DNA of 38,245 nt from assembly GCF_006345805.1 (NCBI RefSeq), contig NW_021835708.1, positions 1 to 38,245 of the forward strand. Direction: 5' to 3'. Shown one piece after another: positions 3,315 through 37,895 of the stretch. Under the pieces are notes generated by a model. That model had not been told where the DNA came from and searched no databases. It saw nothing but the letters and a program-made list of their open reading frames with translations. The position numbers were made by a program, and so were the translations under genes. The first letter of the stretch is position 1. Each line of letters starts with the position of its first letter. This DNA is from Octopus sinensis. Its lineage: Eukaryota.

Positions 3315-5894
3315 TCACGCTCCGGCAGCCAGTATCGCGTGCGTGTTGCCACGAAGAACTGCAATTCCGATACGTTGGCGAAGCCAATACCCCTCGCGAC
3401 TGTCCCTCCTTCGTTTAGCCAGCATCGCCCCAATTTCCTTGAGAAATTCCGCGGTTTTGGATCCCACTACACCAGACGTCTCTATCGAGATTGGGACAAA
3501 ACGGAAAAGTTTTCCGATCTCCAAATACTTAGAAATCTTCGCCTTTTCCGCTGCATTAGCAGCCCAACCGGGCGAATGAATATTCCGAAGAATCATGGAC
3601 TGGGAGAACGTGTCTACGCACGTCGCATCCCATGCGAGTGATTTTCCCTGGGAGTACGGGAAAAGAGTTATCCCATCGGGCCTTCTGCCATCTCCCCGGT
3701 CAAGCCCGATGGGTTCCAGGTGTGCTGGAAATCCTGCGCTCTCGAGGGCCCGTCGTATTATGTCGTTGAGTGCGGCATGGCGGGGAGCGCGACCTGCACT
3801 CCTCTTGCAAGACAAAGGGTGTAGTCCTTTCGAATCGACTATTCCTCCACACCGGCATCTGTGTTCCTGACAGACGTCAAGACCCAAGCGTTGTGCAACA
3901 CCGATTCTCACACAATCGTCGTCCATAAGCGTACCGAATGAACTGCATGGAAATGCGTGGAGCCATGCACCACTCCCGTGCTGTGCCCCGGATAGCAAAC
4001 AGACGAGCCGGTGTTGGTTCAACTCCCGCTTCAGGTCATCAACGACAGCCTTGCATGATATTGCGTCCCAACAATTCTGTCTCGAGACATCATCTGGGAT
4101 TGAAAGTCCGGCTTCCTTCCATTGCAAGCAAGCCTTGTCAAATACTGTGTCCAAGGAGAGTCCAGTAGTGTTACGTAGGACTTACTGGACGAGATGACTA
4201 CACTTTGAAAGCGATGACAGATATGTCGGGAGTGCAAGTCCAGCGCCGACCTGAGACTTGTGCCTCCGGCGTTTGTAGAAAACTTGCACTGATTCCAACC
4301 AGGTTCGTCAAAGTGGATGTTCAAGAGCACTTCAGCTGAATTTTTCAGTCCTATCCAGTGACTGTAGGATGTCCCGATGTTCCAAGCAGGAGAACAACGG
4401 AGAGCGTATTGGAGTTTAGGCAAGTCAATGCTATTTTTCAAAAGAAAGAATGCATATGAGCATTGAGTAAGGAGAGTTTCTCCGTAACTCTAGAAAGGCC
4501 CTTGTTTTTTTCCAGCAGATGGCACCGCAGTTCCTTTTCGCCAAGTGGGCACCCAAGAAAGTATGCCCTCTCCCGAGGTAAGACAGTAATCCCAGGTAAT
4601 ATCGATTGGAAAGACTTGACCACGTTGATAAAATCACTTTCCGAGTATGTGATATTTATCAGCTCCGATTTCTTTATATTTATATCCAGTCCGAGTTTTC
4701 GTAGTACAGGCACGGCTTGTGACAGAACGTCAAAAACTTTTCCCCACGGCCCTCCAATCGTGGCATCATCAAGATACCAGAGGTTCAGTTCCGCGCTGAT
4801 AGAACGTACAGTTTCGTCGATTGCCAACGCAAAGAGAAGTGGACCAAGCGGGTCCCCTTGCTGGACTCCAGTCTCCGAATAGATAATCTTGTCCGCAAAG
4901 ACGAGTGAAGACTTGGTTCCGTAGGCCAGGTAGACGAGTGGAATGAGTTCCGGGGCTCGTTTGCTTACAGTCTCGAAAATTTGATCCCTCCGCAGTGAAT
5001 TAAAGGCATTGCAGATGTCAAGCTTGACTCCCATTTTTGGATTTTGTTCGTTTTTCTGTGTGAAAAAGCACCTTGCGGCATGCACCGCCGCCTCACATCC
5101 GTTCTTTACCCCAACTCCGAGTTGGAAGGGGGAGAATTCTTCAGATATTCTCGGACAGACAAGACTGCATGCAATTTTAGCTGTTAGCCTTCTGAAGTAG
5201 TTCCCGACCGCGATAGGGCGGGCCCCACCTTCGGGTTTTTTGAAGCCAAGTAGATGTGCGCTGAAAAGAAGCTCCCTTGCGAGAGGAGGGATATCCCCGT
5301 TCAAAATGCGCATAACCAGTCTTGTGATTGATTTGACAAGGTTGCGGCCCGCCTCCGCAGTAGCCCCAGCCGTGAGATCCTTGATGTGACCTGGTCGTAA
5401 GCCATCGAGACCTCCACTGCTGCTCGCCGCGAACGACGAAATGCTGCGCCGCACTTCGCCTTCAGTAACAGTTGTCCTTGGCATATCTCCCGGGAGCACG
5501 AATGGGCGGTAATCTTCCGGCGGACATGGATGTTTTCGTCTGATCTGCTCGAGGACTTCAGGTGTTGGAGCCAAAACGGTATCGTCGCTGGAAACGACCC
5601 GCAACGCCGCCCGGACGTCGCCTTCAAGAAGTTTACGATTTACTCTCTCTCCGAGTGTATCTGGGCAATTCCGAAAGAGCGTATGATCGGCGTCCGGATG
5701 TTTTGCTTTGGAAAATTCCGTTTTGTTAATAGATCGTGATTGGAAATCGTGGATATTTTTCTTCATTTTTGAGGAGAGTGAGTTTCCATGCATGGAACTT
5801 TCTCTAGTGTTCCGATGTGGCTCCTTTGACTCAGTGTAAGGTATGCCAAGTGCAAGCGGGGCGAAACCGAAGAGTTTGAGCCAGGCCTCTTGGT
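3315..5894 (-). pseudogene. RT-CCHC-RLE ORF of the CRE-like element, frameshifted between ~4150 and ~4440
   Basis: ORFs 4438-5793, 4031-4441 (in part) and 3315-4154 are collinear with the intact 1004-aa ORF at 24725-27739. Confidence 0.88.
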
Positions 5895-8186
5895 CAGTGT
5901 TCCCTCTAAGCTGCGCGCGTGCGCGGCCGCGCAGCAGTTTGCACCTTGCTGCGCAGCGAAATTTTTTTCTGCGCAGTAGAAAGTATAATATTAAAAATTG
6001 CTATTTTTTTTAATTTTTTATATGAATTTATATATTCTTATTTTCATTTCAAAACGAAAACGTGTCTATAATATTGATATGAGACTTAAGAAAAATTCTC
6101 CTTCTTTTAAGCCGGAATGGTTGATAGAGTACGTCGAAACCTTAACACCAGATTCAAAAATTCCCAACATGTGCAACTGGGTGATATTTTTAGTTTTTCC
6201 GAAGACTGCGGAGTTGTTTGTAAAATATGTGGCGACGCTAAAGCGACTTGTGATTTTGCGAGTGGAAAAACCTGGGATATATGGAAATTGGATTATCTGA
6301 AGAGACATATTACCCATAAAATTCATTCAGATTCAATAATAAAATTAAGAAGAATTCGAGCAGGAACTGGAATCAGCTGCTTGCTCACAGAGTCTAAGGA
6401 TGACCGACAGATGAGATTCAAAATGAGTGATCGTGCACGAAGTAAAATTGAAAAAGTGAAAATTCTCATTGACAATGTTATTTTGGCTCTCTCCATGAAT
6501 GCTTCATTACTTTCTGTTATGAATATACATGATCATATGGCAAAATATGTAGAACTTCCTGATAGCTGGCGAAGTAAAAATTATGCATTTGAGTTTGTTG
6601 AATGCATCGACTACGTGGTCAAAGAGATATGTATGCAGGAAAATAGAGAGTCTCGGTTCCATACACTCATTGTGGACGAAAGCACAGATATATCCGTAAC
6701 CAAAATGCTTATTATATATATTAAATATCGTCCTACGGGGACAAATTATCACAAAACAGTTTTTGCTAGCATAATGAAACTTACAAGTTGTGACAGTAAA
6801 TCTATTTTATTGCAATCAAGAAATTCTACATGACAAACAATCTTGATTTTCAAAGATGGTAATGTTTACATCAGATGGGGCATCCGTTATGCTAGGGAGA
6901 AGAAATGGCGTGGCATCACTGATCCGTGCTGAGGTTCCTCATCTTACTGAACAACATTGCGTCGTTCACAGACAAGATCTAGGGATCGATGATGCATGGA
7001 AAAAAAATAATCTTGTGAAAAATATTGAAATATTACTCCGGACTGTTTATACTGTTTTCAGTCGATCAAGTATAAAAAAAGCTGCATTTCAGGACCTGGC
7101 TAATGTTGTTGTTGAAGATGTCGTTTCATTTAAGCCACTAAATGAAGTGAGATGGATGTCTCGGCATTTTGCTGTTAAAGCTTTGATAAAAAACTACACA
7201 ATTTTAATTGAATATTTCAAGAAACAGGTTGAAGATGATAATGATCCGATTGCAAAATATTGCTTAAAACAACTTCAAAATCCTCTTATTCATGTTGCTT
7301 TAACTGTCTTAAATGAAATTTTGGCTGAATTAGCAGATTTGTGCACAGTTTTACAAAGAAGCTGTATATCGACCATAGAAGCTGTACAGTTTGCCAGAGC
7401 AAAAATTTCGAAGCTGAAATCTCAATATTTGGATGGAAATGAAATTACTGGAGTGACAGTGTGAAGATGTTGTTATCAACAACTGGTTATGGAGATATAA
7501 ATACAGATGAAATCCTATGCTTTATCGAGCATGTTTATCTGCATTTACAAGAAAGATTTCCAGCTGACGAATTAAGAGAATGGGTAGCATTTGACACTCA
7601 AGCAATTCAAAATCAGACACAACTTTGAATTTGGAAAAGAAAAGATAATTAAATTAGCGAAAAAATATAAAATTTACTCTCTTCAGAAGTCCCACTCATA
7701 AAACTGCAGTCGGAATATACAGATCTCAAGTTTATTTTAAAAGAAAACTGCACTCTGGTGCTTTGAAAACATTTGAAGATGTAATTTACTATATACTAGC
7801 GGAGAAAAAAATTTCAGCCACTGCAACATTTGTGGATATTTGTGGCACATTTCAAGCGTCGAGTGCTGATGCTGAACGTGGATTTAGTTTGATGAACTGT
7901 ATCAAAACTAAACTACGTAATAGACTTGAGATTGACCATTTGGAGATGATCATGCGAATAAGTTCTATTTAACAAGTGGGAATACAGTGGATCTTGATCG
8001 AGTATACAAATTTGGATACAAAATAAAACAGAAGAGAATATCCATTGACTAGACCTATTTTTTAACCATTGGTTTTTTAATTGTAAAATTTCCCCCCCAA
8101 AAATTTTTTGCACACGTCACTTTATAACGCTGCACAATGCAATGTGCCCAGCGCGCATAGCTACCACTCGCTTAGAGGGAACACTG
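5895..8186 (+). mobile_element. Near full-length hAT DNA transposon (ZNF862-like transposase)
   Basis: Perfect 17-bp TIR CAGTGTTCCCTCTAAGC (5895-5911 / 8170-8186) and perfect 8-bp TSD CTCTTGGT (5887-5894 / 8187-8194). Confidence 0.95.
6078..8049 (+). pseudogene. hAT transposase, frameshifted
   Basis: CKIC zinc-finger part, TLIVDESTDIS, FTSDGASVMLG, HCVVHRQDL, EVRWMSR and SSADAERGFSLMN, spread across ORFs 6117-6833, 6856-7464 and 7763-7972. End coordinates are approximate. Confidence 0.88.
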
Positions 8187-10243: not shown

Positions 10244-10315
10244 TGGATTTGTAATAAATCGACTTTTTTTAAATAAATTATAATTTAATTTTCTTACATT
10301 ATTCTTGGTAAAATT

Positions 10316-11475: not shown

Positions 11476-11676
11476 CAAAAATCAGATAAATGGAATTTTG
11501 AATTACGCTTTATTTATACGAAAATCCAATTTTTTTTGTCCGGCAAATTTTAAATTCTGCTTTAAAATTAAATTCTAAAAGCCAAAAATAATTTTAAAAA
11601 TTAAAAAAATAATTCTAATTTTACCAAGAATGATGTAAGAAAATTAATATAATTTATTTTTAAAAAAGTCGATTTA

Positions 11677-14666: not shown

Positions 14667-14904
14667 AACAACTTTTCAATCAAAATTAATCATTTAATCT
14701 ATATTTGATAATAATGTTTGGTTAAATTAAATTTTAATTTTGTGGAGAGAGTGAGTAATACTATCCTAAAAATTGTTTTCCAAGTGTTTAAAATACTAGA
14801 GAGTAGTCTACCTGGCTATACCTGTTAGTGGTTTTTTAGCAAAAATTTTAACTATTTTAGGAGTAAAATTTTCACTCTAGTGTTTGGAATAAAGTTTTTT
14901 TTAC

Positions 14905-15770
14905 CTGTCCTCTCATTCTCCCTCCCGCACTCTCTCAGACATCATTCTTCGAAACCTTCCCGAACGGAAAGTGTCTGCAGATTTTGTCGCGGCAGGTCTC
15001 TTATGGAAGGCCCGGTTTGACTCGAGGCGGCCTGAGTCCGAGGACAACTAGCGCCAGTGGGACGAGATTGTATGTCGGTCTTTGTACGAAAAACTCACTC
15101 CAAAACTTAACCAACATAGGCTCGCCTGCCTTCGTGCTGGCTGTCACTCAGGCAGCGGTACTTGGATTAATGCCTTCCCCCCCTTCAATTGGGAACTTCC
15201 TGGACTCCGAGTGCCTAAGAATCGGCATCTCCTCACGTGTCGGGCTCGAAATCTGTCAGGCACACAAATGTTGCGGAACTGTGGACAAGTTCTGGTTACA
15301 TCCCCCTCCTGCGCCCGCAGTGCAGGCCGCGCTCCTCGCTACGGTGAACTGAACAACATCGTGAAGAGTTCCCTCGAAGCCACCGGGGTTCCGTTCGTCC
15401 ACGAACCTGTTGGTTTGGACAGAGGTGACGGTAAACGCCCTGACGGCTTAACTACATTACCCTTTAAGTAGGGAAAATTCCTTATATGGGATTCCACTTG
15501 CTGTGACACATTCTCCAACGGGAACCTAGCCAGGTCTGCCGTCGACCCAGGCTTTGGGTCCAATAGCGCTGAAAATCTCAAAATCCTGAAATACGGTCAT
15601 CTCTCCAGCTTCGTTTTCACACCCATCGCCGTTGAGACCTCTGGGGTTTTCGGCCGCAAGTCGCTTTGTTTCCTACGCTGAGAGAGTCCTTTTGGCTTCT
15701 TCAACGCCTCTCCATTGCTGTAATCCGCGGCAACTGCTTCGCAATCCGTAAGGCTGGGAGAGCGCCCTAA
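14905..15770 (+). mobile_element. Degraded 3' third of a CRE-like element
   Basis: LNQHRLACLRAG, LDSECLRIGI, CARSAGRAPRYGELNNIV, EPVGLDRGDGKRPDGLT, WDSTCCDTF, AVIRGNC, with frameshifts and a stop. Confidence 0.88.
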
Positions 15771-16464: not shown

Positions 16465-16847
16465 AGTTTGTGTAAAAAGTTGAGCCCCACAAAAACTAGC
16501 CAGATTCCTGCTCGTGTGCCTTCCACATGTCCTGTGGCGCAATGACTTAAAGATCCTCGGCGGTCATTTCTGATTGGCATTATCGGGCATTTCTCCAACC
16601 AGATAATACGACAAACTCCTCCCTACGCTACACTTCTAAACATGCCCCACTAGACCATCAGGAAATACTTGAATTGATCTCAAACCTGACACATACACGA
16701 AGACTCCTGATCAGGATTCCCAAAGCTGCCCATATATCTGTCGCGGACTGTCTATGTGAGTGCATTGAAAGGGCTGTTTCTTCGGACGACTCTGAGGATT
16801 GGTTACGACTATTTTGCTTCGCTCCATTCACTATGCATACCCCATAG
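16465..16847 (+). pseudogene. Degraded 5' part (PHD finger plus pre-RT region) of a CRE-like element
   Basis: SCSCAFHMSCGAMT*RSSAVISDWHYRAF aligns to SCKSFFHLSCAGISKLAASTLSKWTCPSC. IRIPKAAHISVADCL...DDSEDWLRLFCFAP aligns to VKIPKAARILSAESL...NDPSSWNHFFCFG. Confidence 0.8.
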
Positions 16848-16879
16848 GAGTGGGAAATGTTGTTTATTCTTACATTGTG

Positions 16880-18127
16880 TGTCACAGGCTGGATAATGCC
16901 CTGGGTTGGATAATACCCCCTTAAAAATTTTATTAAAATCAAACGAAAATAACCTGATAATTAATTAAAAATAACTTAATAATGAAATTAAGTCGATTTG
17001 TTCAATTTTTTATCAATTTTTTGATTGAATGAATTTTTCCAAGAGTCGGCAAAAACCGGCATCACCAATTTTTCCGAATCAATAACGTTTTTTATTATAA
17101 TTATACAATTTTTTAGGTCTACCATTTAAAAACAAATATTAAAAATTCATGAATTTTTATTATATAAAAAATTATTTGGATTTGCAACAATATCATGTCT
17201 CAGTAGGACATTATCTTCTAAGGCTAAATCTTCATTAAATTTTTATTTCCGCCTCCTTTTCATTTTTTCTCCGGCGAAAACATGGCTTTCATACACACTT
17301 TGTTGATTCAAACAATCGTCCTCGTTTTCAAAATAATCGGATCCAATTATCTCCGATTGACTTGATTCAACCGCTTCATTTCCATCGAATGACAATAACG
17401 CCGATCTTATTTCCTCCGGGATTAAATTATTTCCTCGCATAAAAATTTCGAAAGGTGTCCTCTTGGTCGTTTCATGCTTCGCCATGTTATATTTATAAAC
17501 GATTTCTTGATAGAAGTCTTTATAGCTTCCAAAAGACCCATTTGAGGCACTAGTCTAGTTGACATTGTTTCCATACATTTGTTCTTAAATTCTTTCCCAA
17601 ATATCCGTCTGTAGAATAAATGGGGGACCAATCATGTAAAAAATATTCTTTAATTTTCTAGTAATTTACTCCGCTGATTTCCGCCTGGCAAGTTTTACAA
17701 CTGCGAATTTAGAAAATGAGTCTATAACCACAACCAACTACAATTTATACAAAAAGAAATACCCATCCATTATCGTTATTAAGGCTAGCATACCTTCTTA
17801 AATCCACTAAATCTGCAATCGGTCCATATAAAAAACATCTATTTGAATATTTTTGATTGCTTCAAGTTCATCTTTAGTAAGGTTGAGTAAAACCATTTCT
17901 GAAATATAGATTTGATCAATTATACTTATTATTTTTTCAAATTGGAAAACTTAGATAACCAAAATAAATTTGCACGGTAGATTAATTTGAAAAAAACTTT
18001 GATAAATTACTAAAATAATTAAGAAAATCAAAAAATCTAATCAAAATTAATTTGGAAAAATATTTATTTTTTTAAAATAACGTTGAGGGGGCATTATCCA
18101 ACCCAGGGCATTATCCAGCCGGTGACA
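16880..18127 (-). mobile_element. Internally deleted Ginger-like (Ginger2/TDD-type) DNA transposon
   Basis: ~42-bp TIR TGTCACAGGCTGGATAATGCCCTGGGTTGGATAAT... and perfect 5-bp TSD TTGTG. Minus-strand rve integrase remnant IADLVDLRRY...GW|LVVVIDSFSKF...ILQTD..GKEFKN...KHETTKRTPFEIF with a 25-nt intron (17738-17762). Confidence 0.88.
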
Positions 18128-21062: not shown

Positions 21063-22085
21063 TTAGATCCCGACCAACCGGATAGTCTGCACGTTGCCAC
21101 GCACGATTGCAAGCGAAAACCTCTGTCTTGCCCAAGAGGATTCGCACGCCCGGAGGCTAACCGTTTTTTATTTTCCTTCAAAGAGGCCGACATCTGTCAG
21201 GAATTTTGTTGTTTGCGGCCCGGAGGCTCTAGAGGTTTGAATGGCAGACCAACTGGTTCGAATACATTCGGGAAACGGAACCATTGAATGCTTGGGAGAT
21301 TATGTCATTGAGTGTTCTTCTTACACTGTTGAAAGCTGTGCTTAAATTGAACTTCACAGCTGTGTGGGGGAGATAAGTGGTCCATTAAAAAAGAAAAGAC
21401 TTTTGGGAGCCTGAACTGCGGCTTCACAATCGTTAGCGATTCTTACTCTCAGTTAGCAAGGAGAATAGTTAGGGCTGAAACAAGGCATACACTCCTTGCT
21501 GCCAATTTAGCAATCAGGCGCCAGAAGTAGTTCCCAACTGCTATAGGGCGGATTCCGCCGTTCTTTATTCGGAATGCAAGTAGATGTGCCAGGATGAGCA
21601 TGTTCCTCACAATGCGGGGTATCTCACAGCTCAATATCGTACTAACTAAAACGGCTATACCGGATATCAGGGTATTGCCTGCCTCTCCAGTTGAGAGAGA
21701 GATGAGGTCATTCATATGGCCCGGACGTAAGCCATCGAGTTCACTGTAGCAGCTTTTCCCAAATAACTGGATTGAAATTCTGATTTTTTCTTCTGAGAGG
21801 TTGAGGGTGGAGGGCACAGATGGACGGGCAATTAAGAGGTCGTACATTCGGAGGGGGGTCTGGGTGTTTTGATCTCAGATTGGTAATGACACGTTCAATC
21901 CATCTCGTCTCGCTTCCATACGGTTCGGAGAGTTGTCTTGTGTATAGGAATGAGATCATCCGTTCGCAGACTAGCGTGCAACAAGGTGACCCGCTGGAGC
22001 CACTTCTCTTACAAATTGATAAGGCAGCTCCACTTGCTGTCTCTCTTTTCAATCTGTGGTATCTGGATGATGCCACATTAGCTAA
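21063..22085 (-). mobile_element. Scrambled CRE-like element: deleted minus-strand copy plus an inverted internal RT segment
   Basis: Minus strand 21885->21063: KHPDPP...DGLRPGH...GGIRPIAVGN...AFNSVRR / LNDII..EPVGL / LAIVRGN. Plus strand ~21895-22085: LVSLPYG...VQQGDPL...WYLDDATL. Confidence 0.82.
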
Positions 22086-23432
22086 GAACCATTAAGAGTG
22101 AATCTTTTTTCTCTATTCAGGATTTCTCAAAAAGATAAAATCAAACTTAATCGCCATATGACTCCCCCGACTCTTCTGCCTAGACACCTGTCATTCTCCT
22201 CCAACATCAACGCTCAGAATTTCTAAAGATGTTTAGTAATAGTTTCCAGTTTCTATATGATTGTCAAGATAACTAAAATTTTAGAATCTAAAGTTAAGAA
22301 TATGGGGGTCGGTTCTTCTTCCCCCACTACTTTGAGACGGCCTGCTTCCACAAACCGACACTCGTGCAACAATCCGGGGTTGGCACGCCTGAATTAATCT
22401 CTTTGGGGGAGACTACCTAGTCCAGAATACCTCCATTTGTACAACTGATATATACTAACACCTCCACACACCAATTCTACCTTTCCCATGCTCTCCCCTG
22501 CATGTTCAACTCAGTGAAGGGAACTCCAAAATTAATGAACCGAACAAAGTGAGACTGCTACATGTTGCAATACTTCCGAATCACCCCGTTTTTCACAATT
22601 GCGGGGAGCTGATAGTGATCGCCCAACATACGTTTTTGGTTATTTTCTTTTCTTGCTTATTAAAAAAATTATTGATTTTTTCAATATCGGATAATTGCAT
22701 AAGATTTTCCGTGGACAAATGCAATTAACCGATTTCTGCTGTACTACATTCAAGCACAGACTAATCAATCCTATAACCGTCCTATAACCGTCTTTGGCTG
22801 AAAGAGTAGTTAAGAGTCTAAGTGTCAGGTCAACGACGCCCCACTGCGTATTGAATGACAGTTTCCGCAGAATACGGTGACCAAGGAAAGAGCCAGCTCG
22901 TCTCTCTTCGGTCGTTTGTTTTCGAGGAAATTCTTTTACCAATGTCAATGAGGAATTGGTTTTTTAATTTATGACTTTCAGTAAATGGCCTGGTTTGGCT
23001 AATCATTGAACGATGTTTAAATAATTGGAAAATAATGTTTTTATGGATATTTTTCAGCTTAGGATTCTGCAGATACCCTTCGATAGAATAATGACTGTTT
23101 TATTAGCAAATAAATGAAATACTTACTAATGTTCTATCAGGGTCTTCCAAATATAATATGAACACGCGCTCTTTGGCTGATTTTAGGGCATGTTAATGTC
23201 CGCGGGGAGAGGAGATATACTAAAGTCAATATTCTTTGGCTGGTATTAGTATGTATAGTATTCTCTAAATGTACACTAACAGTTGGATGCATTTCATAGC
23301 TTCATTATAAGAATGAATATAATTGTAATTTTATGAGAAATATGTTATATATTAATATTTTAGATTAAAAAAAGATTATGTAAAATAAATAGTATAATCT
23401 TATTACTTGTGCGTTCTGTTTATTATAATAGA

Positions 23433-23994
23433 ATGGGTGCATCCAGAGTAAAAGTGGTGGTTGTGGGTGACGGAGCCTGTGGCAAAACAAGTCTACTCTT
23501 ATCCTTCACTAAAAACGAATTCAATCAAGGCTACATCCCCACAGTATTCGAGAACGACGTGGCAGATATAAAAGTGGATGGGAAGGATGTGAACCTGTCA
23601 CTGTGGGACACAGCTGGTCAGGAGGACTACGATCGACTACGCCCCCTGTCATATTCTGACTCGAATGTGATTCTCCTGACTTTCTCAGCTGACTCCCAGA
23701 CTTCCTATGACAATGTGGTAAACAAGTGGATTGCAGAGGTTGAGGGGTTGTGTGTTAGCATAGTTAACTCATTTTTGTCCCAACGTCCCCATCGTCCTTG
23801 TCTGCACCAAAGTCGACCTCCGTAATGACTCTTCCGTTTCGAAGGAGGACGGCGAACAGTTGTCCAAGAAAATACATGCCTTCAGTTACCGAGAATGTTC
23901 GGCCAAAACATCTGACGGGATTAAACAAGTCTTTTTGGATGCAGCCCGTGCTGGCCTGACGAAGAAGCAGAGCAAGTCTTGTTTTATTCTTTGA
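23433..23994 (+). CDS. rho: Rho-family GTPase (RhoA-like), 2 exons (23433-23738, 23764-23994), 178 aa, CAAX = CFIL, lacking the Rho insert
   Basis: [39 protein letters not shown]|[29 protein letters not shown] 25-nt GT-AG intron restores the frame. Confidence 0.95.
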
Positions 23995-24185
23995 ACTGTT
24001 TAATTCATTTCTTTCCTTTTTAATCAACTTTCTAGTGACTTTATCCTAGCAGAGCAGGTATATTATACAGTTGACTAGATAGCGTTATTCAATAGTCGAA
24101 AATTACTCCAAGAATCTTCTGGGTATGCATATATGGAATAGGACTTCACCACAACAAAGGAACGTCTCTAATACTTAAAAAATAC

Positions 24186-24605
24186 TTTATTGACCAAAGG
24201 ACCAGGGTAAGCCAGTTAATTATAATCCCCGTGATCCCCGATTCAAGCGAGGGAGATCCTCCTGTAAGGTTCGATCCTGTCCTCAATGATCGGACTAAGA
24301 CAACGATGTCCCAGGGTCAGAGTTCTAGAAGTCCTTTTTCGGTGCATTAAGTGCCTCCTGAGTGTTTCCATATCCGATTGGAAGTTTTAACTGACATGGT
24401 GGACCCCATAACGCCACGCTAAGACCGGAAGGAAGGTGAGAGATCTTTTCAACTGTGTCGTGCCAGAAGTACTCATTGCTTCACGGGCAGGGGAACGATA
24501 ACGAGAATTGACCCCGGCTGGAAAATAGCCTCCTTCGGATACGAACCCACGACTGTTCAGATCCATTATCCATAGCTTAAGTTTCAGCGAATAAATAGCT
24601 CGAGT
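24186..24605 (-). mobile_element. Possible tRNA-derived SINE-like element
   Basis: The minus strand has a T-arm/B-box-like GTCGTGGGTTCGTATCC near 24537-24553, a GC-richer ~350-bp body and AATAAA at the end. No clear A-box or TSD. Confidence 0.25.
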
Positions 24606-24724
24606 TCTTATGAATTAATGTCTTATATTGCTTTTAATATGAAATAGAATCACATCTCCGAAAAATGCATTTGATACGTATAAGTGCCATTAACTACCAC
24701 TTCGAAAATAACTAGACAATGCAG

Positions 24725-27700
24725 TTATTTTGAACTGCCGGCGCATAAGATGGCCTGGCAGTTCCCTCGGACGATCGCCAACGAGACTCTTTGGAAAAGA
24801 TGACGAGTCTCGTTGGGATCCTTGTTTCGTCTGGCAATCTTCGACTCCAGCCGACGAAGGAAAGAAAGCGATTCTGGGCCGATGACCCCGGATGTCTCCA
24901 CGGCTACTGGCGCAAAAATGTGGTTTCTGGCCAGGTACGAGTATTTTCTTGTTTTTGTGACCTCCGCATGTCTTGCCGCTGAGCCGGGCTCAGCAACTGA
25001 AGAGATCAGGTTATGCGGGGAGAATGTGTCGGAGCATGTCGCATCCCAGATGAGGCATTTCCCGTGATCGAAGGGAAATGTTGTCATGCCATCTGGGCGC
25101 TTTCCATCTCCGCGATCCAACCCGACTGGTTCCAGCACATTAGGGAATCCCGCAGATGCCAGGGCGCGGCTCACCACATCATTAAGCCCAGAGTGTCGAG
25201 GGAAACGTCCAGCGCTACGCCGGCAGGATAGCGGGTGCAGTCCTAGGGTGTCAATCATCTGGCCGCAGCGGCATTGATGTTCACGGCAGATGTTTAATCC
25301 CAAGCGCAGAGAGACTGCGATGCGGAGGCATTCGTTATCCAGTAATGTCCCGACTGATACCATTGGGATAGCTGTCAGCCAGGCTCCCGAATACTCTTGG
25401 GACCCAGCAAGCAGGCAGCTCAGGCGGTTTTGATCAAGTTTACACTTGAGGAGGAAAAACTTGTGGTCCGAATAAATTCCGTCCCACTGCCGCTGTTTGG
25501 TCGAATCATCAGGAACTTTGAGACCATTAGCGGACCAGCATCTGACAGCCGAAGAGAACTCAGTGTCCACGGGGGATTCAATAGCGGATTGGAGAATCTC
25601 GTGGACCGGAGAGCTGGTGGCGTGAACAGAGGAAAGAAATCCTGGCAGGGAAAGATCGGCGGCAGAGCGCACACCGATGCCACCGTGGCTAACCGGGAGG
25701 ATTGCCTGCTCCCAGCCGAGGTCATCAAACGGGGCATTACAAAATGCTTCGAGGCATGCCCTGAGGGCACGGTCGAAGCTGAAGAGGCCCACGTGATTTG
25801 TAAAACAGGGGGCACTTCGGAGGGTGAACATTAACTTGGGGATCGCAAAGCAATTTCTCAATAGAAATAAAGCCGCATGGGAATCAATTGTCGTGAGCTT
25901 ACTGGACATAGATATGAGATTCGAGGTTTTTTCGGACAGAGTTTGATCCACTCCAGTGTTGAATATGGGGGAGCCCAAAATCTTGAGATTCGATGGCGTG
26001 GTGACTTGAATGTTCGATAAAAACGAGTTGAAGGAACGAAGAATATCGGAAAAATGGTGCGGGTCGTAACTGATGTTTATGATTTCAGATTTATTGGAAT
26101 TGACTTCGAGACCAATGGCGTGCAATGAAGGGATTATGATTCTCAGGTCATCAAGAACGGATTCAGATGTACCACCTATGGTGGCGTCGTCCAAGTACCA
26201 AACGTTGAATTTGGATGATACATTCCTGGCAACGTTATCCATAGCCAGAGCGAAAAGGAGAGGGCCCAAAGGGTCATCTTGCTGTACTCCATTACTGGAC
26301 GGGATTTTCTGATTACCAGCGACAAGGAGGCTGGGCTGGCCGTAGGCCAACGCGATGAGACGGGAGATTGCTGGACAGCGACGGGTAGCGGATTCGAAAA
26401 AAGTGTCACGACGCACACAGTTGAAAGCATTAGCCAAGTCTATCTTGATAAGAAGACAAGGCTTGTCTTGACGATCTTGAGAGGCAATCACAAACTTTCT
26501 CGTGGCGTGGACTGCTGCTTCGCAGCCACCCCGAACTCCTACGCCGAGTTGTATTGGGCGTAATTCGGACCCCAGCAATTTGATGGCTTGTCTGCAAGCT
26601 ACCTTCGACGCCAGACGGCGGAAGAGGCAACCCACGGCGATGGGACGGACACCGCCTTCCTTTTTCCTCAGGGCAGTGAGATTAGCGGCAAAAAATAGGT
26701 CGCGGGCATACTCGGAGATTTCTCCGTTCAAAATTCGGTTCGTAAGAGCCGTTAGGGACGATAGGAGGCGCTGACCGGCTTCACAAGTTTGGGGAGAGAG
26801 CATGTCTTTGACGTGTCCGGGCCGGAGGCCGTCTATACCGCCACAGCTACCAGTTGAAAGAGAATTAATGGCATCGAGGACTTTCTCATCTGAGGCATGT
26901 GAGATTGGAAGGTCAGAATGGGTGATAAGGGGCCGTTGGTCGTCTGGAGGATTGGGGTGCTTTGCTTTTAGTTCTGTAAGGATTTGGGGAGTTATTTCGA
27001 GGGCCTTGGAATCAGATGCCAGTACTCGCACAGCGCCGGCAACGTTTCCTTCTAGTAGTTGGGCGTTTACACGTTCACGTAGACGTATGGCGTCACGGTT
27101 AATAGCCTCGTCGTTTTGTGGGACGCGGGGCTGGTGCGTCTGGTTCTTCCGTTGGGCCTTCCCTGTGGCACCTAGCCAACTAGAGAAATCCGAGGGACAC
27201 GGCATGTAGGCCAATATGTTAGCCTTAAATCGCGACGAAGTAGAAATGGGATGGATGTTATGGCCTCTGGACTGTTTATGGGTGCCTTCTTTAGGGAGAC
27301 CGAGAGCCATTATGCCAAAACAGAAAAAATGGTTCCAGCTGGATGGGTCGTTAAAAGAAAGCGCTTTGTTGATAACGGATGATAAAGACTCGGCCGAGAG
27401 AATGCGCGCAGCCTTAGGTATTTTGACTGGGATAGTACGGACCCTTTTGGCTCGGGAAACCGACAAGAGGAAATCTTTCACTGATAGGATGGGTGTAATT
27501 GGTTGGGAATTATTGGAATCGGAAAGAATTTTGGAAGATACCGGCCGCGAACCGCGGGCAAGAGGGTGGCATGAGGGGCAGGTCCATTTGGACAAGGTTG
27601 AAGCAGCCAATTTAGAGATTCCAGCACAGGAAAGATGAAAGAAGCTTTTGCAGGAGGAACACAGGCAGCCGTTCTTCCTCAGGTTGCTTAAGTTGCACGA

Positions 27701-27739
27701 AGAGCATAGGAGAGACTTTTTAGAGAAAGGTAGTACCAT
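24725..27739 (-). CDS. Uninterrupted 1004-aa ORF of a CRE-like non-LTR retrotransposon: PHD finger, RT, CCHC knuckle, restriction-like endonuclease
   Basis: C4HC3 pattern CSSC...CSSCKSFFHLSC...WTCPSC. RT motifs RPIAVG, KIDLANAFN, GVQQDDPLGP, WYLDD. CRC...HPLSC, RH..LND, KRPDG...WDATC. Confidence 0.93.
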   Translation of the reverse strand: MVLPFSKKSLLCSSCNLSNLRKNGCLCSSCKSFFHLSCAGISKLAASTLSKWTCPSCHPLARGSRPVSSKILSDSNNSQPITPILSVKDFLLSVSRAKRVRTIPVKIPKAARILSAESLSSVINKALSFNDPSSWNHFFCFGIMALGLPKEGTHKQSRGHNIHPISTSSRFKANILAYMPCPSDFSSWLGATGKAQRKNQTHQPRVPQNDEAINRDAIRLRERVNAQLLEGNVAGAVRVLASDSKALEITPQILTELKAKHPNPPDDQRPLITHSDLPISHASDEKVLDAINSLSTGSCGGIDGLRPGHVKDMLSPQTCEAGQRLLSSLTALTNRILNGEISEYARDLFFAANLTALRKKEGGVRPIAVGCLFRRLASKVACRQAIKLLGSELRPIQLGVGVRGGCEAAVHATRKFVIASQDRQDKPCLLIKIDLANAFNCVRRDTFFESATRRCPAISRLIALAYGQPSLLVAGNQKIPSSNGVQQDDPLGPLLFALAMDNVARNVSSKFNVWYLDDATIGGTSESVLDDLRIIIPSLHAIGLEVNSNKSEIINISYDPHHFSDILRSFNSFLSNIQVTTPSNLKILGSPIFNTGVDQTLSEKTSNLISMSSKLTTIDSHAALFLLRNCFAIPKLMFTLRSAPCFTNHVGLFSFDRALRACLEAFCNAPFDDLGWEQAILPVSHGGIGVRSAADLSLPGFLSSVHATSSPVHEILQSAIESPVDTEFSSAVRCWSANGLKVPDDSTKQRQWDGIYSDHKFFLLKCKLDQNRLSCLLAGSQEYSGAWLTAIPMVSVGTLLDNECLRIAVSLRLGLNICREHQCRCGQMIDTLGLHPLSCRRSAGRFPRHSGLNDVVSRALASAGFPNVLEPVGLDRGDGKRPDGMTTFPFDHGKCLIWDATCSDTFSPHNLISSVAEPGSAARHAEVTKTRKYSYLARNHIFAPVAVETSGVIGPESLSFLRRLESKIARRNKDPNETRHLFQRVSLAIVRGNCQAILCAGSSK

Positions 27740-27901
27740 GTGGATATGCTAAATTGAGGCAATGTAAAAAAGATGGATATAGTAAATAGAGACAATGAAA
27801 GAAAAAGACAATAAGAGAAGGATATAAGAGATAGATGTAATAGATTGGGACAATGTAATAAAATGGATATAAGAGAGAATTAGTAAATTGAGACTATAAT
27901 G

Positions 27902-28763
27902 CAGTGGTTCTCAACCTTTTTTGTCCGCGGACCCCTTGTGAGTAAATGAAAAATTTCGCGGACCCCCTACATATTTATTAAGTTTTTTGTCAAAAAAATT
28001 TTACTTATCTAAAAACAAAATTTATTATTAAATCAATAGAGAAAATTAGTGAGGTACTATGTCTTTACAACAAGGAAGAATCAGTTTTTCGGCAATATTA
28101 TGAGGTTTCTTTTCTTTCGCTATACGTAATGAAATCATGTAAGATGCTAATAGCATGGAATTATCAGAAGGCAAAGTTTGTATGAAACGAGTCAATACTT
28201 GATTTTTCATCATTTTACGCAAAGAAATAAAATAATCCTTATTTTTGTGGATTAGATGGGGATGACATGTGCGCAAGTGTCTCACAAGAGTTGTTGGTTT
28301 CATGCTATTGTGTGACAGAATTTTCATGCACACAACACATTTTGGGCTTTCAAATCCATCTTTATCAATACAAATAAACCCATATTTTATATAATCAGGA
28401 TTATATTTGCGTATCTTAATAACATTCGAGGAATTCATATCAATAGCGTGCTTAAAAATTTTATTAACTTTTACTAAAAAATAAATATATATACGATTTT
28501 TATAAATAATTGAGTTACATTCAGCTTTAAAGTAATTTAGCCTCCTCAGTATTATTGAATATTAAAATATATTAATTTATTTAGCCCCCTCAGTATTATT
28601 GAATATTAAAATATATTAATTTATAATATATCTAAAAGAGATATTATTAATTATGATTTAATTCTATTATATATTAATTTAAAATTGTTATCATTAAATA
28701 GAAACATTTAAATAAAGTTTCAGAAAAATCTCGCGGACCCCCTGGAATCTTTCGCGGACCCCA
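27902..28763 (-). mobile_element. Internally deleted hAT (Buster/Charlie group) retaining the BED-finger N-terminus; one TIR missing
   Basis: CAGTGGTTCTCAACCTTTTT terminus at 27902 and subterminal cgcggacccc repeats at both ends. ORF 28046-28438: RKYNPDYIKYGF...PKCVVC...SMKP..LVRHL...KKPHNIAEKLILPC. Confidence 0.85.
28536..28624. repeat. 44-bp tandem duplication
   Basis: tttagcc(t/c)cctcagtattattgaatattaaaatatattaattta, two copies. Confidence 0.85.
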
Positions 28764-28984
28764 GAATTTATTAAAAAACATTGAAAACGAGCATGATGTC
28801 TTACTAATCTCATCTATAAGACGTTACAAAGAAAATATACTTATATCTAAAAAAAACAAATGGGAATTGAATTTTACTTAAAAAAATTGAGATTTTTTTT
28901 TATTTTCTTTAAATTTAAAAAAATTATGCTAACTGAAGATAAATTAAAGTAGTTTCTATGTAAAATTATCGATTTGATTCTCTA

Positions 28985-29054
28985 ATTGGCCATTTCTCAA
29001 ATTGGCCAACAAAATTGAAGGAACCAAAAATGGCCAGTTTGAGAGGGTTGAGTG
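28985..29054. mobile_element. Solo terminus of a pogo/Tigger-like element
   Basis: ...aattggccatttctcaaattggcc...tggccagtttgagagggttgagtg|TA has Tigger-like terminal and subterminal repeat organisation. The partner end was not found. Confidence 0.45.
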
Positions 29055-30922: not shown

Positions 30923-33753
30923 ATGGTTAAAAAGGTTGTGGCTTACTATTTTAATTACTCAATTGATGACTTTTTTGTACCCTTAGATCTCTCTTGTTGT
31001 CAAAAATGAATCAGTACGGATGGAATTCGCCGTCAAGGTCAATCAACTGGGGCGTAGTGTCGTAGAAATGGCATGTTCTTATTACACATTCCTAGGTCTG
31101 CTCTGCTTTCAACCTCCGTGAGCCATGGTACCTCACTCTCAGCTACCCACAAAAGAACGGAGAAAGCTACTACTACTTGCGAAAGTCAACCAAGGTCTAT
31201 TTAGTTGATAAAAGTGAATAGTTGTCCAAACAGCCTCTGGGAAAACTATCCGGGAATGTAGAATGCAATATATGCGTGTATTTGTACCCAGAAAACACTG
31301 TCACTGGTCTCATCACCCAGTCTATGATTGTAGTCCTTCACAGTTATAGCTAGGACTTATTTTACAACCATGTAAGACGTTTGGTTAGCGAAGGAGTGCT
31401 CTACATTCCTCCAGAGAGGTGTCTGGTGCTGTCCTCGATGGCAGTGCTGAATGACTACGGACTGTACAACTCACTGCGACACAGCGGGGAGTATGTTTCC
31501 GTGGAGAATTACATTCCCGAGAGGTTCTGGTTTGACGTCATTTCAGAATGTTTGAGCAGTACGACTTGCCCAGAAGTGCTTGGCAGAATAAACTGGTTTT
31601 GTTCCACCAGCAGATCAGCGACGATTAGTAGTTTTGCACTAACTTACGTGCAGTGTCCAGAACGAGCGACAAATAAACCCGGCAGCGGAGTACCTGAAGT
31701 ACTGCCAAGACGTAGACATGTTCGGAGTGGAGTACGTGCCCATCGCCAACAAGAACGGCACCAAAATGTATTTGGGACTCACTCCATATGGAATGCACGT
31801 GTATAACAACGACAACAAGTAGACAAGTCTGTGTATTGTAGAATTGACATTATTGCCACTTTTCCATACGGAGAAGTCAGGTCGGTCACTCGCAAGAACA
31901 GGCGAGTCAAGATTGTCTTCAGTGGGGGGACGTCCTCCGATTCGGTAAGAATGTTGGAGTAAGCAGACCTTCACAATATGGTTGGAGAATGCAGAGGACG
32001 GGACCATGTTGACTGACATGATCATGGAATACCGAACACTCTACATCCAGAACAGGAAGGACGACTCTGAATTTATCAAACTGCTTAAAAAACAGTCCTA
32101 TTCAGAAGAGGAGACTCTTCGCAGACAAAAGTAAGAATTCTTTGTGACTGTAGGGAAGTCATGGCACTCAAATACAAGGAGATTACGCAGATGGAGGATC
32201 GGGTCAGACTGATGAGTGCTCAATTGAGCAATTACGAGAATGGGGAGCAATCGGGTAGTGTGTCTCCAATATTCAGACTTATCTGAACTGGGGGACCAAA
32301 TCCAACGACTGTCTGAGCAACTCGAACAGATCACTCTCGAGAAGAGGGAGATGGAGTCTCAGTTGAGTCAGAAAATGACCGGAGACATGGATGCAACCAA
32401 TCGTATCCTGGAAGACAAGACAATGCAGATCGAGAGAATGTCCCTTCAATTGGAAAGAGCAAATGAGTTGTTGCGAGCACGTGAATATGGAGAACTGTGT
32501 GTGAAGTGAATATATTCTTTTAGTGATGTACAGACCCAAGTGATACAACAGGAAATGGAGAGGCAATTGACAGCAGGTGGGTCACTGCAGTCGTGTTGTA
32601 GAACAGAACGTATATGAATCCATTTGCCAGCAGCGAGACCAGTTGCAGGACAAACTCCGCCTCACTCTTGAGCGACAGAGCATAACGGAGAGGGAGAGGG
32701 AGGAGCAGTTGAGGTTGGAAGAGGAGTTGAGGGCGACTGAGCGGAATTTGACTAGCAGTATTCGTTCTGTCCCTCATTCTCAGAGTACGACGATGTCACT
32801 CCCCAAATCGACACTTTGTCGGTCAAACTACAACTTTTAATTGAAGAGAAGACAGAACTGGAGCGTCTTCTTAGGGACGTGACCAAATCTTCCTCCGTGG
32901 CCTCGGAAGTCCGTCTCATCATGGTTGTGGTCATGTCTGATTATTTTCTTAGGAACAAGACCTTGAAAAGAAGAGGGGTGAGGTGAATAGCATGCAGAGT
33001 CAGATCTCGGACTTGGAAGAAGAGTTGAAGCGAGCAAAGAGGCTGTTGGAGACCACAGAACAAGAAAGGTACAACACGCATGTGATTCCGAGGACTAAAA
33101 CTCGTTTAATGCAACAAGAGCAAATGAACCGAGATATGGAGGAGGCCTCTCGTCTTGAACTGGAGATAAATAGACAGGAGGAACGCATGTCCGAGGTTAG
33201 ACGAGAAAATGCACAGGAAATGGAGAAGAGGGCTCAATTGATGAATGATTTGGAGGAAAACAGAACCGCAATGCTCGAACAACTCAGAAATATTGATGGT
33301 ACTTTCAGTATTTCTCTAATTTAGAATCCGAGGCACCAAAATCATGTTCCTCTGCTGACATGATTGAGCAGAATTACGTCCAGTTAGAAGTTGCCCAAGT
33401 TGTAGCAGCAGAGGCTCCAATAAACCGCGTAGAGTCGGACGATGGTGATTGACTTGGGATATGTGTTTTAGTTGAGGTTGTATTTGACGTGGAGGCAGTT
33501 TCTAATCTCCCTCGGTATGAACAAGATAGAGAACCAGCCCAGATAATGGTCAATCGGGAAATGGAGGTTATAACTGTTTAACATTTAGAACTTTGCTTCT
33601 CTCCTGGAAAGGACTAAGATTGGAAGCAAGGAGACTACTAATGACGTGATTTATCGGGCAAACATTCGCCAAGGACGAGACAAGTACAAAACTCTGCAGA
33701 TGATTCGTTCCAATAATACTCGCAAGCACATCGAAGCATTCGAGCTTCGTTAG
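30923..33753 (+). CDS. ERM-family protein (ezrin/radixin/moesin-like), about 19 exons, ~786 aa, divergently transcribed from EMG1
   Basis: FERM motifs MEFAVK, NLREPWY, LYPE, LYIPPE, EYLKYCQDVDMFGV, NKNGTKMYLG; long coiled coil; C-terminal NDVIYRANIRQGRDKYKTLQMIRSNNTRKHIEAFE. About 18 introns: the first is 52 nt and the rest 22-27 nt. One donor (~32924-32930) and one in-frame intron (33069-33092) are uncertain. Confidence 0.9.
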
Positions 33754-34319
33754 TTAGTTTTCATTTACGGACTTTCTTAATAAACTAATCAATTTCTGAA
33801 GTAATGTGACAGAACAAGGAGTGTTCCAATTCATAACAGGTGATCTTGTGATAATCAACAATGGTGGCCGATTTTCTCAGTGTTAGTGATAGATCATTTA
33901 ATCTATACCATTTTCAGTTCAATTCTGACAATGCGATATTCAAATTTGACACTTTTGCATTAGTTTTGACATTTTTATGTTAATTTTGACCTGCCGATTT
34001 GTCATTTATTTTATATTTTCTGATAGGCTGTTCTTGTACGAATTTTTCATTTGAGAGTCTTGAAATAAATCGACTAGAGGCTGTTATTAATGAAATAATT
34101 TTTTTTGCAAAAAATATACAAAGAAGAAAAGTTTAATTTAGATTAGTCACCGAGCTGATGGACAGGAAATTTCCACGTAATACCGCGAGCGATATCCGTT
34201 AAAAAAGCCAGTGGGACTAAGCAACAAGTGTCGACTATAAAAGCATACTTTGCAATTTTCTTACTTGCCAAGTTTGGTTTGACACAGTTTTGCCACGTTT
34301 GGTTGCTAATTGAGTGTCT

Positions 34320-34830
34320 TGAAGCTTTAGGATGATACTGATTTCGTCTTAATTTTTAAATTTTGTATGTATTTCCATGAGTTTAATCCTGTGAACTGAA
34401 TCGAATGGTCTGGACATGTCAATTCCGAGTATTTCGGTGCATTGTTTGTATTTTTGACATAAGACGACTGTTCATCTATGATAACATCAGCAGTGGATCT
34501 TTCAGTTCTGAACCCACTTTGCCTCGACAAAAGAAAATTTTCCACTTTAGTTCTTGTCCTCTTTAATGATCAGCGACAGTACTTTTCGGAGCGTCGCTAG
34601 TAGGATAATAGGTTTTAATTTGGGTAGGGGATCTTTTTGTTTTCAGAGTTTCTGCAGTAGAAACTGTCAGATGTCCCTATTCGTCATCACCCAAAAAAGA
34701 TTTAAATAAAATCGGGTATGTTCTGCTGCCTAATTATATGGATCATTGATATACAGGTTACGATTATGAAATCCCATGACCCGACCGGTTTAAAAAAACC
34801 CTCCAAACTTCTTCACCATTATTAACCCTG
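34320..34830 (-). mobile_element. Degraded RT fragment of an RTE-like LINE (related to the 9.4-kb element)
   Basis: LKPIILLATLRKVLSLII, VENFLLSRQSGFRTERSTADVI; compare LLNTLRKLL...VDNYLSPSHSGFRTGRSTADAV. Confidence 0.7.
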
Positions 34831-35079
34831 AGTATTCGGTCGGTAAAAACCATTGATGGCTTAAAAATATTTGCTATTCTCTTTTATCTGTCTGTCTTCT
34901 AACTAAAGCTTATACAGTTCGCCGTAGAAGAGGGAAAGTTCAAAACTGCACAAGAAAAATTTTAAATTCTGGAAACTTTAACCGGGACGGAGGCAAAGGG
35001 AGAAGAAATCATACTTAAATGGGTAGATGGAGCCTTTGTTCATACTGAGGAAGTCCTGGAGGTTTTACGCCAGCAGCTA

Positions 35080-36085
35080 GCAGTGATTCAGAAGGTGGAC
35101 CCTTCGTTAATGTTTCTTCGGGATATATTTGAGAAGTTGACTCTTAATTCCCGCTTGAAATATGTATTTGATGAACCCTTGTGCAGAGAAATAACCATAG
35201 AAGATACGATCGAAACAATCAGAGGTTGTAAGAATAATCCACATGGGTTTGACTTCATCCCCATGGGGGGCACCAGAATGCCTGGTTCGAATCCTTGGGA
35301 CAATGGTCATATCCCAGCTGACTGGAAACGGACAATCGTCCAAATGATCCCAAAACTTGGAAAACCAAATACGCAGAAAGCTATAGCTCAATTAGTCATA
35401 TCTGCACAACTTCGAAGATAATAGAACAAATTGTTTTCAATCGTTTATCGGCTTACGTTGAGCAAAATAATATACTCGTGGAAGAACAGTGGGATTTAGA
35501 CCTGGTAGATGAACCGGTCACTGTTTCTCGCTTCTTGAGAAAAAACTGTTTCGGGGCAAGCTCTATAAAGCTTGCCTAACGGCAGCTTTCTTGGATGTCT
35601 GCAAGGCTTTTGACAGTGTCTGACACTTTGGGTTGTTAGAGAAAGTGGCAAAATCGGGTGCTGGGCTGAAAATTGTCAGATGGCTATAGAGTTTTTTATG
35701 CGATAGAAAATAGTTCGTGAGTTGTGGAAATTAGCTATTGAAAGCCGCAAATCTGAGGAGAGGGATTCCCAAGGGATCAGTTATCAGCCCATTGCTTTTC
35801 GATATATTCCTGGCTGACGTCCCGAAATCGAATTTTATTACGAACAGACTGATTAGAAATCTGGTTAATGGTAAAGGCTTGAATCTCGCACGGGACAAAA
35901 GCACTATTTGTTGGATTTCGACGGTTCGTGACAAAAAACCGACTTTTAAGGATTATGGGAACCTGGTCGAAGAACCTACGCTATTTGAGAGTAACAGTAG
36001 ACACCACCGGATCCTTCAAACTACATGTGGACACAAAGCGTAAACAATGTGGAAGATCATTAAAAGGACTGAAGCGTTTTTCTTT
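35080..36085 (+). mobile_element. Degraded RT region of an APE-type LINE (Jockey/I/CR1-like)
   Basis: IPADWKRTIVQMIPKLGK, KIIEQIVFNRL, GFRPGR, FLDVCKAFDSV, GIPKGSVISPLLFDIF, LRYLRV, with many stops and frameshifts. Confidence 0.75.
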
Positions 36086-36199
36086 TTTCTTGATAGAATG
36101 TCAATTTTTTGTCATATAGACGGCCTTTTTGGCTTTCTTGAACCATCTTTTAGCAACGAATGTGCAATGTTTTTAATTCAGTTCGAGATTAAAGTCCGA

Positions 36200-37850: not shown

Positions 37851-37895
37851 AATTTTATTATTAAGATTTAAAATAATATTAGTCACTCCTATAAC

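Follow-up and report, generated by a model that had tools for sequence, protein, structure and literature searches.

In a 38,245-nt stretch of an Octopus sinensis assembly (GCF_006345805.1, contig NW_021835708.1, positions 1 to 38,245; hereafter the window) we characterized a long interspersed nuclear element (LINE) whose single open reading frame (ORF) places a PHD finger ahead of a reverse transcriptase (RT), a CCHC zinc knuckle and a restriction-like endonuclease (RLE). This combination of PHD finger, RT and RLE is real and conserved and, it would seem, undescribed in the open literature that we searched. Our preferred account, which we hold tentatively, is that the element is a single-ORF CRE-like RLE LINE without a common target, and that its basic PHD finger serves as a low-specificity grip on DNA and not as a reader of histone marks.

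A PHD finger heads the retrotransposon protein

The ORF list confirms the single 1004-aa frame at 24725..27739 (-) that the original prediction, made from the letters of the window, had assigned to a CRE-like RLE non-LTR retrotransposon. That prediction also described a complete C4HC3 pattern with a Trp before the last Cys pair, and all nine positions are in place (C12, C15, C27, C30, H35, C38, W52, C54 and C57), but the spacers it gave as x10 and x12 count as x11 and x13. The finger occupies aa 12-57 (27569..27706, (-)), as delimited by Pfam, alignments and a predicted model. Downstream of it, Pfam and motifs bear out the predicted succession of an RT core (RVT_1, aa 358-589, with YLDD at aa 515; 25973..26668, (-)), a CCHC zinc knuckle located by alignment and motif (C823, C825, H835 and C839; 25223..25273, (-)) and an RLE located in the same way (RH 848, E870, KRPD 880-883 and D899; 24860..25198, (-), lower bound approximate), in which KRPDG at 880 and WD at 898 serve as motif landmarks.

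The PF00628 (PHD) profile of Pfam scores 28.9 bits on aa 1-80 (E 1.2e-6; cut-off 24) and 22.2 bits, below the cut-off, on the whole 1004-aa protein. A RING or other zinc finger was ruled out for aa 12-57, as zf-RING_2 reaches only E 0.26 and the structure matches PHD. A six-frame scan of the window matched the C4HC3 pattern once only, in the focal ORF. In a predicted structure of the finger alone (70 aa), predicted local distance difference test (pLDDT) values are 82-90 across aa 11-60, and every listed Foldseek match to this model contains a PHD, with template modeling (TM) scores of up to 0.82 by target. Going by this model, aa 12-57 form a genuine PHD fold with its cross-brace, and the predicted identity of the N-terminus is upheld. 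A putative flexible linker of ~30 aa would separate the finger from the remainder of the protein. An AlphaFold model of the full length (mean pLDDT 82) has R2 proteins as its best Foldseek matches (E 3e-23, TM ~0.55).

The focal copy may itself be inactive, since its RT carries Asp488 in the QGDPL motif in place of the family Gly: over 76 motif matches this position is G in 71, D in 4 and E in 1, and every D comes from the focal site or a duplicate contig.

The finger is conserved across the family

Searching the assembly with aa 1-70 gave 440 PHD candidates, the best 150 of which were scored, and an RLE search gave 7742, again with the best 150 scored. From 20 loci with long frames, 12 own-assembly subfamily proteins were aligned, which are 41-47% identical to the focal protein. 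Mean pairwise identity among these 12 subfamilies is 51% in the PHD finger, 52.5% in the RT and 57% in the RLE, against 16-18% in the linkers, and a finger as conserved as the RT beside far less conserved linkers argues for selection on the finger. Seven of the eight zinc ligands (the exception is C15), Trp52, Leu36, Arg21 and Lys22 are invariant. Judged from these alignments, the PHD finger is a conserved trait of the whole LINE family.

The original prediction had likewise called the finger a family feature and not a one-off, citing a diverged copy at 16465-16847 said to retain the motif. The homology holds (tblastn E 6e-21 to subfamily L053, over ~16506-16850 (+)), but the motif does not. 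What remains of the related copy is a decayed piece of its 5' part (16506..16850, (+)) with half a PHD remnant, where C4, H, C5 and W alone are still in frame, a stop interrupts the finger, the last Cys pair is lost and the first half is unrecoverable. Broken as it is, we rejected it as proof of conservation, which comes instead from the 12 divergent subfamilies. Family coding sequence makes up 4.5% of a 400-kb sample, a figure for that sample and not genome-wide, as it was drawn in even steps from small contigs on which copies had been located beforehand (40 stretches).

The finger is basic and has lost reader residues

Residues were counted over 35 element fingers (one core counted twice, L105 being the same as L054), with 12 cellular PHDs from the same assembly as controls. 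The positions were read off alignments, and we take the cage Trp, Met/Tyr and Asp positions to have the roles usual in histone readers. The cage Trp (His-2) is present in 2/35 element fingers versus 1/12 controls, and Asp after Cys3 in 5/35 versus 8/12, while the Met/Tyr cage position (Cys3-3) is Gly in 17, Met in 2 and Phe in 2 of the 35. Arg at Cys3-6 (32/35) and Lys at Cys3-5 (33/35) form a pair that presumably sits just before the strand pairing with H3. Net charge runs from +2 to +10 in element fingers (mean +6.1) and from -6 to +6 in controls (mean -1.0; p 3e-6, overstated since the element rows are related), and the mean Asp/Glu count is 1.1 versus 4.9. The focal finger itself has R21-K22, a Phe where the cage Trp would be, a Ser following Cys3, and no Asp or Glu at all. 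Element fingers thus do not resemble H3K4me3 readers at the cage Trp and Met/Tyr positions, nor H3-tail readers of either kind (K4me0 or K4me3) at the acidic contact residue. The closest sequence and structure matches of the finger are H3K4me2/3 readers (PHF2, PHF8, BPTF and Alfin), and it probably descends from an H3K4me3-reader PHD of the PHF2/BPTF/Alfin kind whose pocket was lost.

Insertion without a common target

Sixty PHD-bearing loci were taken, 45 of them with both ends and 26 with a recognisable 5' motif. Tails of at least eight A residues end 25/45 copies versus 72/3600 control windows, and direct repeats of at least 10 nt span the junctions of 9/26 copies versus 3/149 mismatched pairs. 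The target duplications are mostly 10-15 bp and A/T-rich, without a common sequence, and the 400-kb sample contains 24 3' ends of the family versus 3 PHD ends, as 5' truncation would leave. The hallmarks of target-primed reverse transcription (TPRT), namely 3' tail, 5' truncation and target duplication, are therefore all found at the family level; the focal copy has lost its 5' junction. A site-specific target was rejected because the duplications share no sequence and only 3 look-alike pairs occur among 102 flanks, in agreement with the predicted loss of site-specific insertion.

The original prediction further held that copies land in other transposons. An excess of repeats beside them is present: after removal of 3 duplicate flanks or loci, 27/101 adjoining flanks (27%) match repeats of the 400-kb sample, versus 14.5% of tiled windows (bootstrap 10.7-18.8%). 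It is not particular to the LINE, however, as flanks of an unrelated short interspersed nuclear element (SINE)-like control repeat match repeats at the same rate (7/26, 27%; 2/15 SINE loci removed as duplicates), so that survival of insertions outside genes fits as well as targeting does.

A 5'-terminal motif of the type CACGTTG-(TTG)n-GTGGTG is found in 15/60 copies versus 14/2640 control windows (L044, L045, L054, L055, L057 and L067-L076), lies 110-220 nt before the start codon and is common to subfamilies only ~44% identical in protein; it is possibly an internal promoter. A look-alike lies upstream of a host Rho gene in L063. As an insertion target the motif was rejected, because upstream flanks differ and the downstream sequence is element untranslated region (UTR). 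Separately, the 5' junction of 2/45 copies (L041 and L050, and more weakly L058) carries 35-37 nt of the element's own 3' end in inverted orientation, which suggests abortive priming from the second strand.

Relatives and the contents of the N-terminal slot

PHD-bearing RT-RLE proteins also occur elsewhere, as the original prediction had thought worth searching for. Two protein searches yielded 261 stored proteins, 22 of which match the finger profile, 19 of these being of the basic type; with aa 1-330 as query, a word-seeded search gave no more than 2 proteins. The top ESM Atlas cluster has 201 unnamed members, with PHD in 42% and RVT_1 in 41%. Our trees contain the search matches and own copies only. 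In a FastTree built on the RT-RLE core from 117 full-length rows, without the truncated ones, the basic-PHD proteins group in a single clade of 30 with support 1.0, and in an IQ-TREE of 70 rows a 33-row clade that includes N-truncated proteins labelled barnacle has a value of 100 in the Shimodaira-Hasegawa-like approximate likelihood ratio test (SH-aLRT). Of the homologues that have a name, the nearest are labelled octopus. In one member of the clade (P0166) a CXC-like module takes the place of the finger.

Outside this clade the same slot holds C2H2, CCHC-type or CXC-like modules (labelled by regular expression) and RFX or OTU (Pfam), and in two or three separate branches it is filled by a canonical PHD that has the cage Trp (P0019, P0023 and P0035). 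N-terminal cargo in sister branches includes a canonical PHD, PHD with RFX, and an OTU protease with C2H2 (among P0019, P0035, P0023, P0162 and P0041); P0162 has two PHDs, the first of which grouped with the canonical ones. The canonical sister-branch PHDs are better candidates for true histone readers than the basic fingers. Together these proteins offer a natural swap series in one slot, running over C2H2, CCHC, CXC-like, RFX, OTU, canonical PHD and basic PHD.

Several of the CRE-like proteins (P0009, P0012, P0162, P0210, P0225, P0021, P0053 and P0061) carry a C-terminal ubiquitin-specific protease (USP), with Pfam UCH matches of up to E 2e-65 and Cys-box and His-box patterns matching in several. 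The protease occurs in the basic-PHD branch and in C2H2 branches alike, and two of the proteins are labelled as barnacle USP genes by their source.

What the finger may do

The lost cage and acidic residues, the basic charge and the precedent of BAZ1A lead us to favor nucleic-acid binding over the reading of histones or nucleosomes. The BAZ1A PHD showed no histone-array binding and bound DNA through two lysines (PMC5636791). In the account that we tentatively prefer, the LINE protein would bind its own RNA, the basic face of the finger would hold duplex or linker DNA in the role of the R2 ZnF/Myb, the RLE would nick A/T-rich DNA, the poly(A) tail would prime reverse transcription, and a second nick 10-15 bp off would yield the target duplication. 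It is supported by the DNA-binding module types (C2H2 and RFX) that fill the same slot in sister clades.

Several points count against this account. In two other PHDs a basic pair did not suffice to bind DNA (PMC5636791), most PHDs bind H3, and a 2018 review names only two DNA-binding PHDs, which are of an atypical C3HC2H type (PMC6222470). One control (L083) also reaches a net charge of +6, and many K4me0 readers likewise have no cage Trp, which only one of the 12 controls has, so the charge and Asp contrasts weigh more than the Trp. As to targeting, the flanks are enriched in repeats ~1.8-fold, dropping to 8/61 at 900 bp, and the SINE control is small (n=26).

A different nucleic acid would be bound if the finger held the element's own RNA, for instance by its conserved 5' end, and so stood in for an RNA-binding module of the ORF1 type; we consider this unlikely but the best of the alternatives. 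The same basic, non-acidic surface would serve, the 5'-terminal motif is common to divergent subfamilies, and PHDs are frequent in CR1/L2 ORF1 (PMC4120745); on the other side stand the DNA-binding types in the sister-clade slot, and the 5' motif may be a mere internal promoter.

The original prediction had the lineage exchange sequence-specific targeting for the reading of chromatin state. That the finger reads H3 tails or the nucleosome surface and directs insertion to repeat-rich chromatin is, in our judgment, doubtful. Its nearest matches are H3K4me2/3 readers, the repeat enrichment of adjoining flanks decays with distance, canonical acidic cage-Trp PHDs exist in other branches (P0019, P0023 and P0035), and the invariant Arg could serve as an acidic-patch anchor. 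Yet the basic-PHD clade, with its near-invariant Arg-Lys, has lost the cage and the acidic residues, the SINE control shows the same 27%, as expected if selection purges genic insertions, and in the window it was a DNA transposon that went into the LINE. The replacement of sequence targeting by mark reading is thus not borne out.

More doubtful still is a broader version, in which an undescribed CRE-like clade, present in several unrelated datasets, turned a mark-reading PHD into a basic nucleosome grip and inserts in a chromatin-directed way with no sequence target. Docking on nucleosomal DNA, or on the acidic patch of H2A/H2B, would fall to the invariant Arg-Lys, and the C-terminal deubiquitinase of some members might help to choose or open chromatin. 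If true, a chromatin-directed RLE LINE making up at least 4.5% of a parasite genome, as judged from the sampled stretches, would be hidden in a host assembly.

A role of the finger in protein interaction or in the ubiquitin pathway (dimerisation, or binding of a host cofactor or silencing factor), apart from target choice, is improbable. Clade members P0009, P0162, P0210, P0225 and P0021 do have the C-terminal ubiquitin-specific protease with its Cys box, and by the title of entry 7m10 the PHF2 PHD also binds a non-histone peptide; but the own-assembly subfamilies have the finger without any protease, and since the protease is also present in C2H2 branches (P0053 and P0061), finger and protease do not travel together. 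Dispensable cargo or a one-off fusion is very improbable, for although P0166 swapped its finger for a CXC-like module, conservation at RT level in 12 subfamilies, invariant ligands and presence in 22/261 database proteins, 19 of them basic, largely refute it.

The swap series in the N-terminal slot and a finger of only 46 aa, for which R21/K22 give a sharp prediction, make both the loss of site specificity and the role of LINE PHDs testable; as of 2014, no functional study of LINE PHD fingers was reported (PMC4120745). RLE LINEs serve as models of RNA-templated gene insertion and as tools for it, and their N-terminal module decides where they insert.

A probable second, compact genome in the assembly

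The assembly measures 2.7 Gb. A Rho search has matches on chromosome-scale contigs, where the exons lie kilobases from one another, as well as on small contigs, where the genes are compact. All 150 PHD and all 150 RLE matches that were scored lie outside the chromosome-scale contigs. The Rho GTPase gene of the window (23433..23994, (+)) needs a 25-nt GT-AG intron (23739-23763), and four other Rho-family genes have 24-27-nt introns, as read by eye. Contigs of runs X3 and X4 cross the Rho gene with exactly 25 gap letters, and those of the DNA-type run X1 with none. Portions of the element, among them the PHD region, are likewise present in the X3 and X4 contigs, which come from one study; this is a weak hint of its expression, and a look-up listed no RNA dataset as containing the element. 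GC content is 36% in the 400-kb small-contig sample, and small contigs such as C1794, C8702, C6303 and C9497 appear to represent a second compact genome with ~36% GC and ~25-nt introns.

Dicyemids inhabit cephalopod kidneys. Among animals, introns under 30 nt are reported for myxobolids and Dicyema only (PMC13644364), and the Dicyema genome is given as 67.5 Mb with 49% repeats and a GC content of 36.7% (PMC6736024). By its sequence features, the host of the element is likely to be a compact-genome parasite co-assembled with a large-genome animal, most plausibly a dicyemid. Two points tell against this attribution: the matches cover the best-scored candidates only, so copies on host chromosomes are possible, and the taxon is drawn from intron size and contig class and not from phylogeny. 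Chromosome-scale contigs (C2, C3, C9, C14 and others) show many similar, scattered 44-aa PHD matches of ~31 bits, which may represent a PHD-bearing LINE family of the host itself, distinct from this one. Proteins from the small contigs may be mislabelled in databases, and octopus-labelled database proteins of the present LINE family may stem from such a parasite.

The focal locus and its neighborhood

Comparison with sister copies, which part from the focal copy at 24701-24713, gives the element a very short 3' UTR and 3' end at 24701..24724 (-), and the focal copy has no poly(A). The ~110 bases beyond this 3' end match only the window and a duplicate contig among 40 scored candidates; that contig (C9532:62782-70088) is identical to the window across the Rho gene, SINE, LINE and hAT end and is probably a haplotype or assembly duplicate. 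On the other side, a pyrimidine-rich remnant of the 5' UTR (27740..27901, (-)) is 99% identical to the sister copy L002, which extends further. It is cut off by the terminal repeat of a hAT/Buster-like DNA transposon (27902..28770, (.), far end approximate) with a BED-finger ORF (28046-28438, (-)). The hAT terminal repeat adjoins 27901 inside the LINE 5' UTR, and its 8-bp site, NNNTANNN, is LINE UTR sequence, with TA at positions 4-5 as in 9/9 such hAT termini. Since the 8-bp site is made of LINE UTR, the DNA transposon entered the LINE at this locus and not the LINE the transposon, the reverse of the predicted landing of copies in other transposons.

The SINE-like repeat used as the flank control (24186..24591, (-)) is multi-copy and ~410 nt long, with a tRNA-like head (box A/B-like, read by eye) and an AATAAA-rich tail; an Rfam scan of 23900-29000 gave no match. 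The LINE family occupies 22% of the window. Besides the copies above, it has left a 5'-truncated, frameshifted copy of another subfamily without a PHD (3318..5901, (-); 87-98% to L048), a 3' fragment of another subfamily (14902..15764, (+)) and further fragments at 10360-10524 (-), 13613-13786 (+), 21488-22089, 22887-22970 (-) and 37413-37880 (-). An inverted-repeat element (16880-18127) lies next to the decayed 5' fragment. Other mobile DNA in the window (856-1287, 6117-7464, 9000-10300, 10523-11629, 16880-18127 and 34200-36400) comprises a Pif1/Helitron-like helicase end, hAT-like ORFs, a decayed RT-bearing LINE, two inverted-repeat elements and LINE fragments, and its repeats also include tandem arrays of 75 and 95 nt. 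Two further genes are an ERM/merlin-like gene, read by eye at ~31050-33500 (+) and broken by many apparent ~25-nt introns, and a forkhead gene at 14187-14666 (+).

Prior description and comparison with known systems

The architecture is a moderate surprise, since the ESM Atlas already contains unnamed clusters of PHD with RT, and other LINEs, too, are known to have PHDs. Animal CRE families are listed in Repbase. A PHD-bearing RLE/CRE family, which the original prediction had allowed might already be described, was not found in the open literature searched, with Repbase, Dfam and supplements outside that search; the terms were looked up in PMC9977147, PMC13580325, PMC5678591, PMC4640811, PMC3636483, PMC12857005, PMC13188248, PMC13708176 and PMC6736024, and in PMC9977147 PHD occurs in a figure legend with the element unnamed.

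In CR1/L2 LINEs, too, a protein of the element can start with a PHD, either ORF1, as the original prediction noted, or a single ORF, and genome targeting by such a PHD has already been proposed for them, including single-ORF elements with an N-terminal PHD (PMC4120745). They carry an APE endonuclease, whereas here the endonuclease is a C-terminal RLE and the finger is basic and cage-less. With the H3K4me3-reader PHDs of PHF2, PHF8, BPTF and Alfin, its best sequence and structure matches, the finger differs in that their M/Y-x-x-C-D and W-F/Y-H become G-x-x-C-S and F-F-H, and BPTF has S-K after acidic residues where the element has R-K. The BAZ1A PHD shares the Cys4HisCys3 pattern, the lack of an aromatic cage and of acidic residues, and a basic pair (PMC5636791), but belongs to a cellular ISWI subunit; its DNA binding is shown, that of the element's finger is putative, and the basic positions of the two are putatively equivalent.

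R2 proteins (R2Bm, R2Tg and R2Pm) are the best sequence match among solved structures (E 7e-19) as well as the best fold match, and TPRT would be a mechanism common to both. A single ORF that joins RT, CCHC knuckle and a C-terminal nuclease of the PD-(D/E)xK type places the element among the RLE-type (R2 group) non-LTR retrotransposons. Identity is only 15-17%, and the element has neither the ZnF-Myb module nor 28S rDNA specificity; non-specific RLE elements are known in HERO (PMC4640811). With the CRE clade (CRE1/2, SLACS, CZAR, Cnl1, MoTeR and FoTeR) the element shares a single ORF with RT, CCHC and then the RH..E..RPD..D endonuclease, as well as target-site duplications (PMC3636483, PMC12857005). 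It differs in its N-terminal PHD, where classical members have C2H2 fingers, and in having no spliced-leader or telomere target. Against the published CRE endonuclease pattern C-x1-3-C-x7-8-H-x3-4-C-x9-10-RH[DN]-x19-33-E-x9-21-[RK]PD-x12-14-[DE] (PMC12857005), the focal endonuclease has every Cys, His, RH, E, RPD and D, with spacers of 1, 9, 3, 8, 19, 10 and 15, three of them off by one, and RHS at the RH position. Given the lack of site specificity and of C2H2 fingers, and a tree without reference CREs, we call the element CRE-like.

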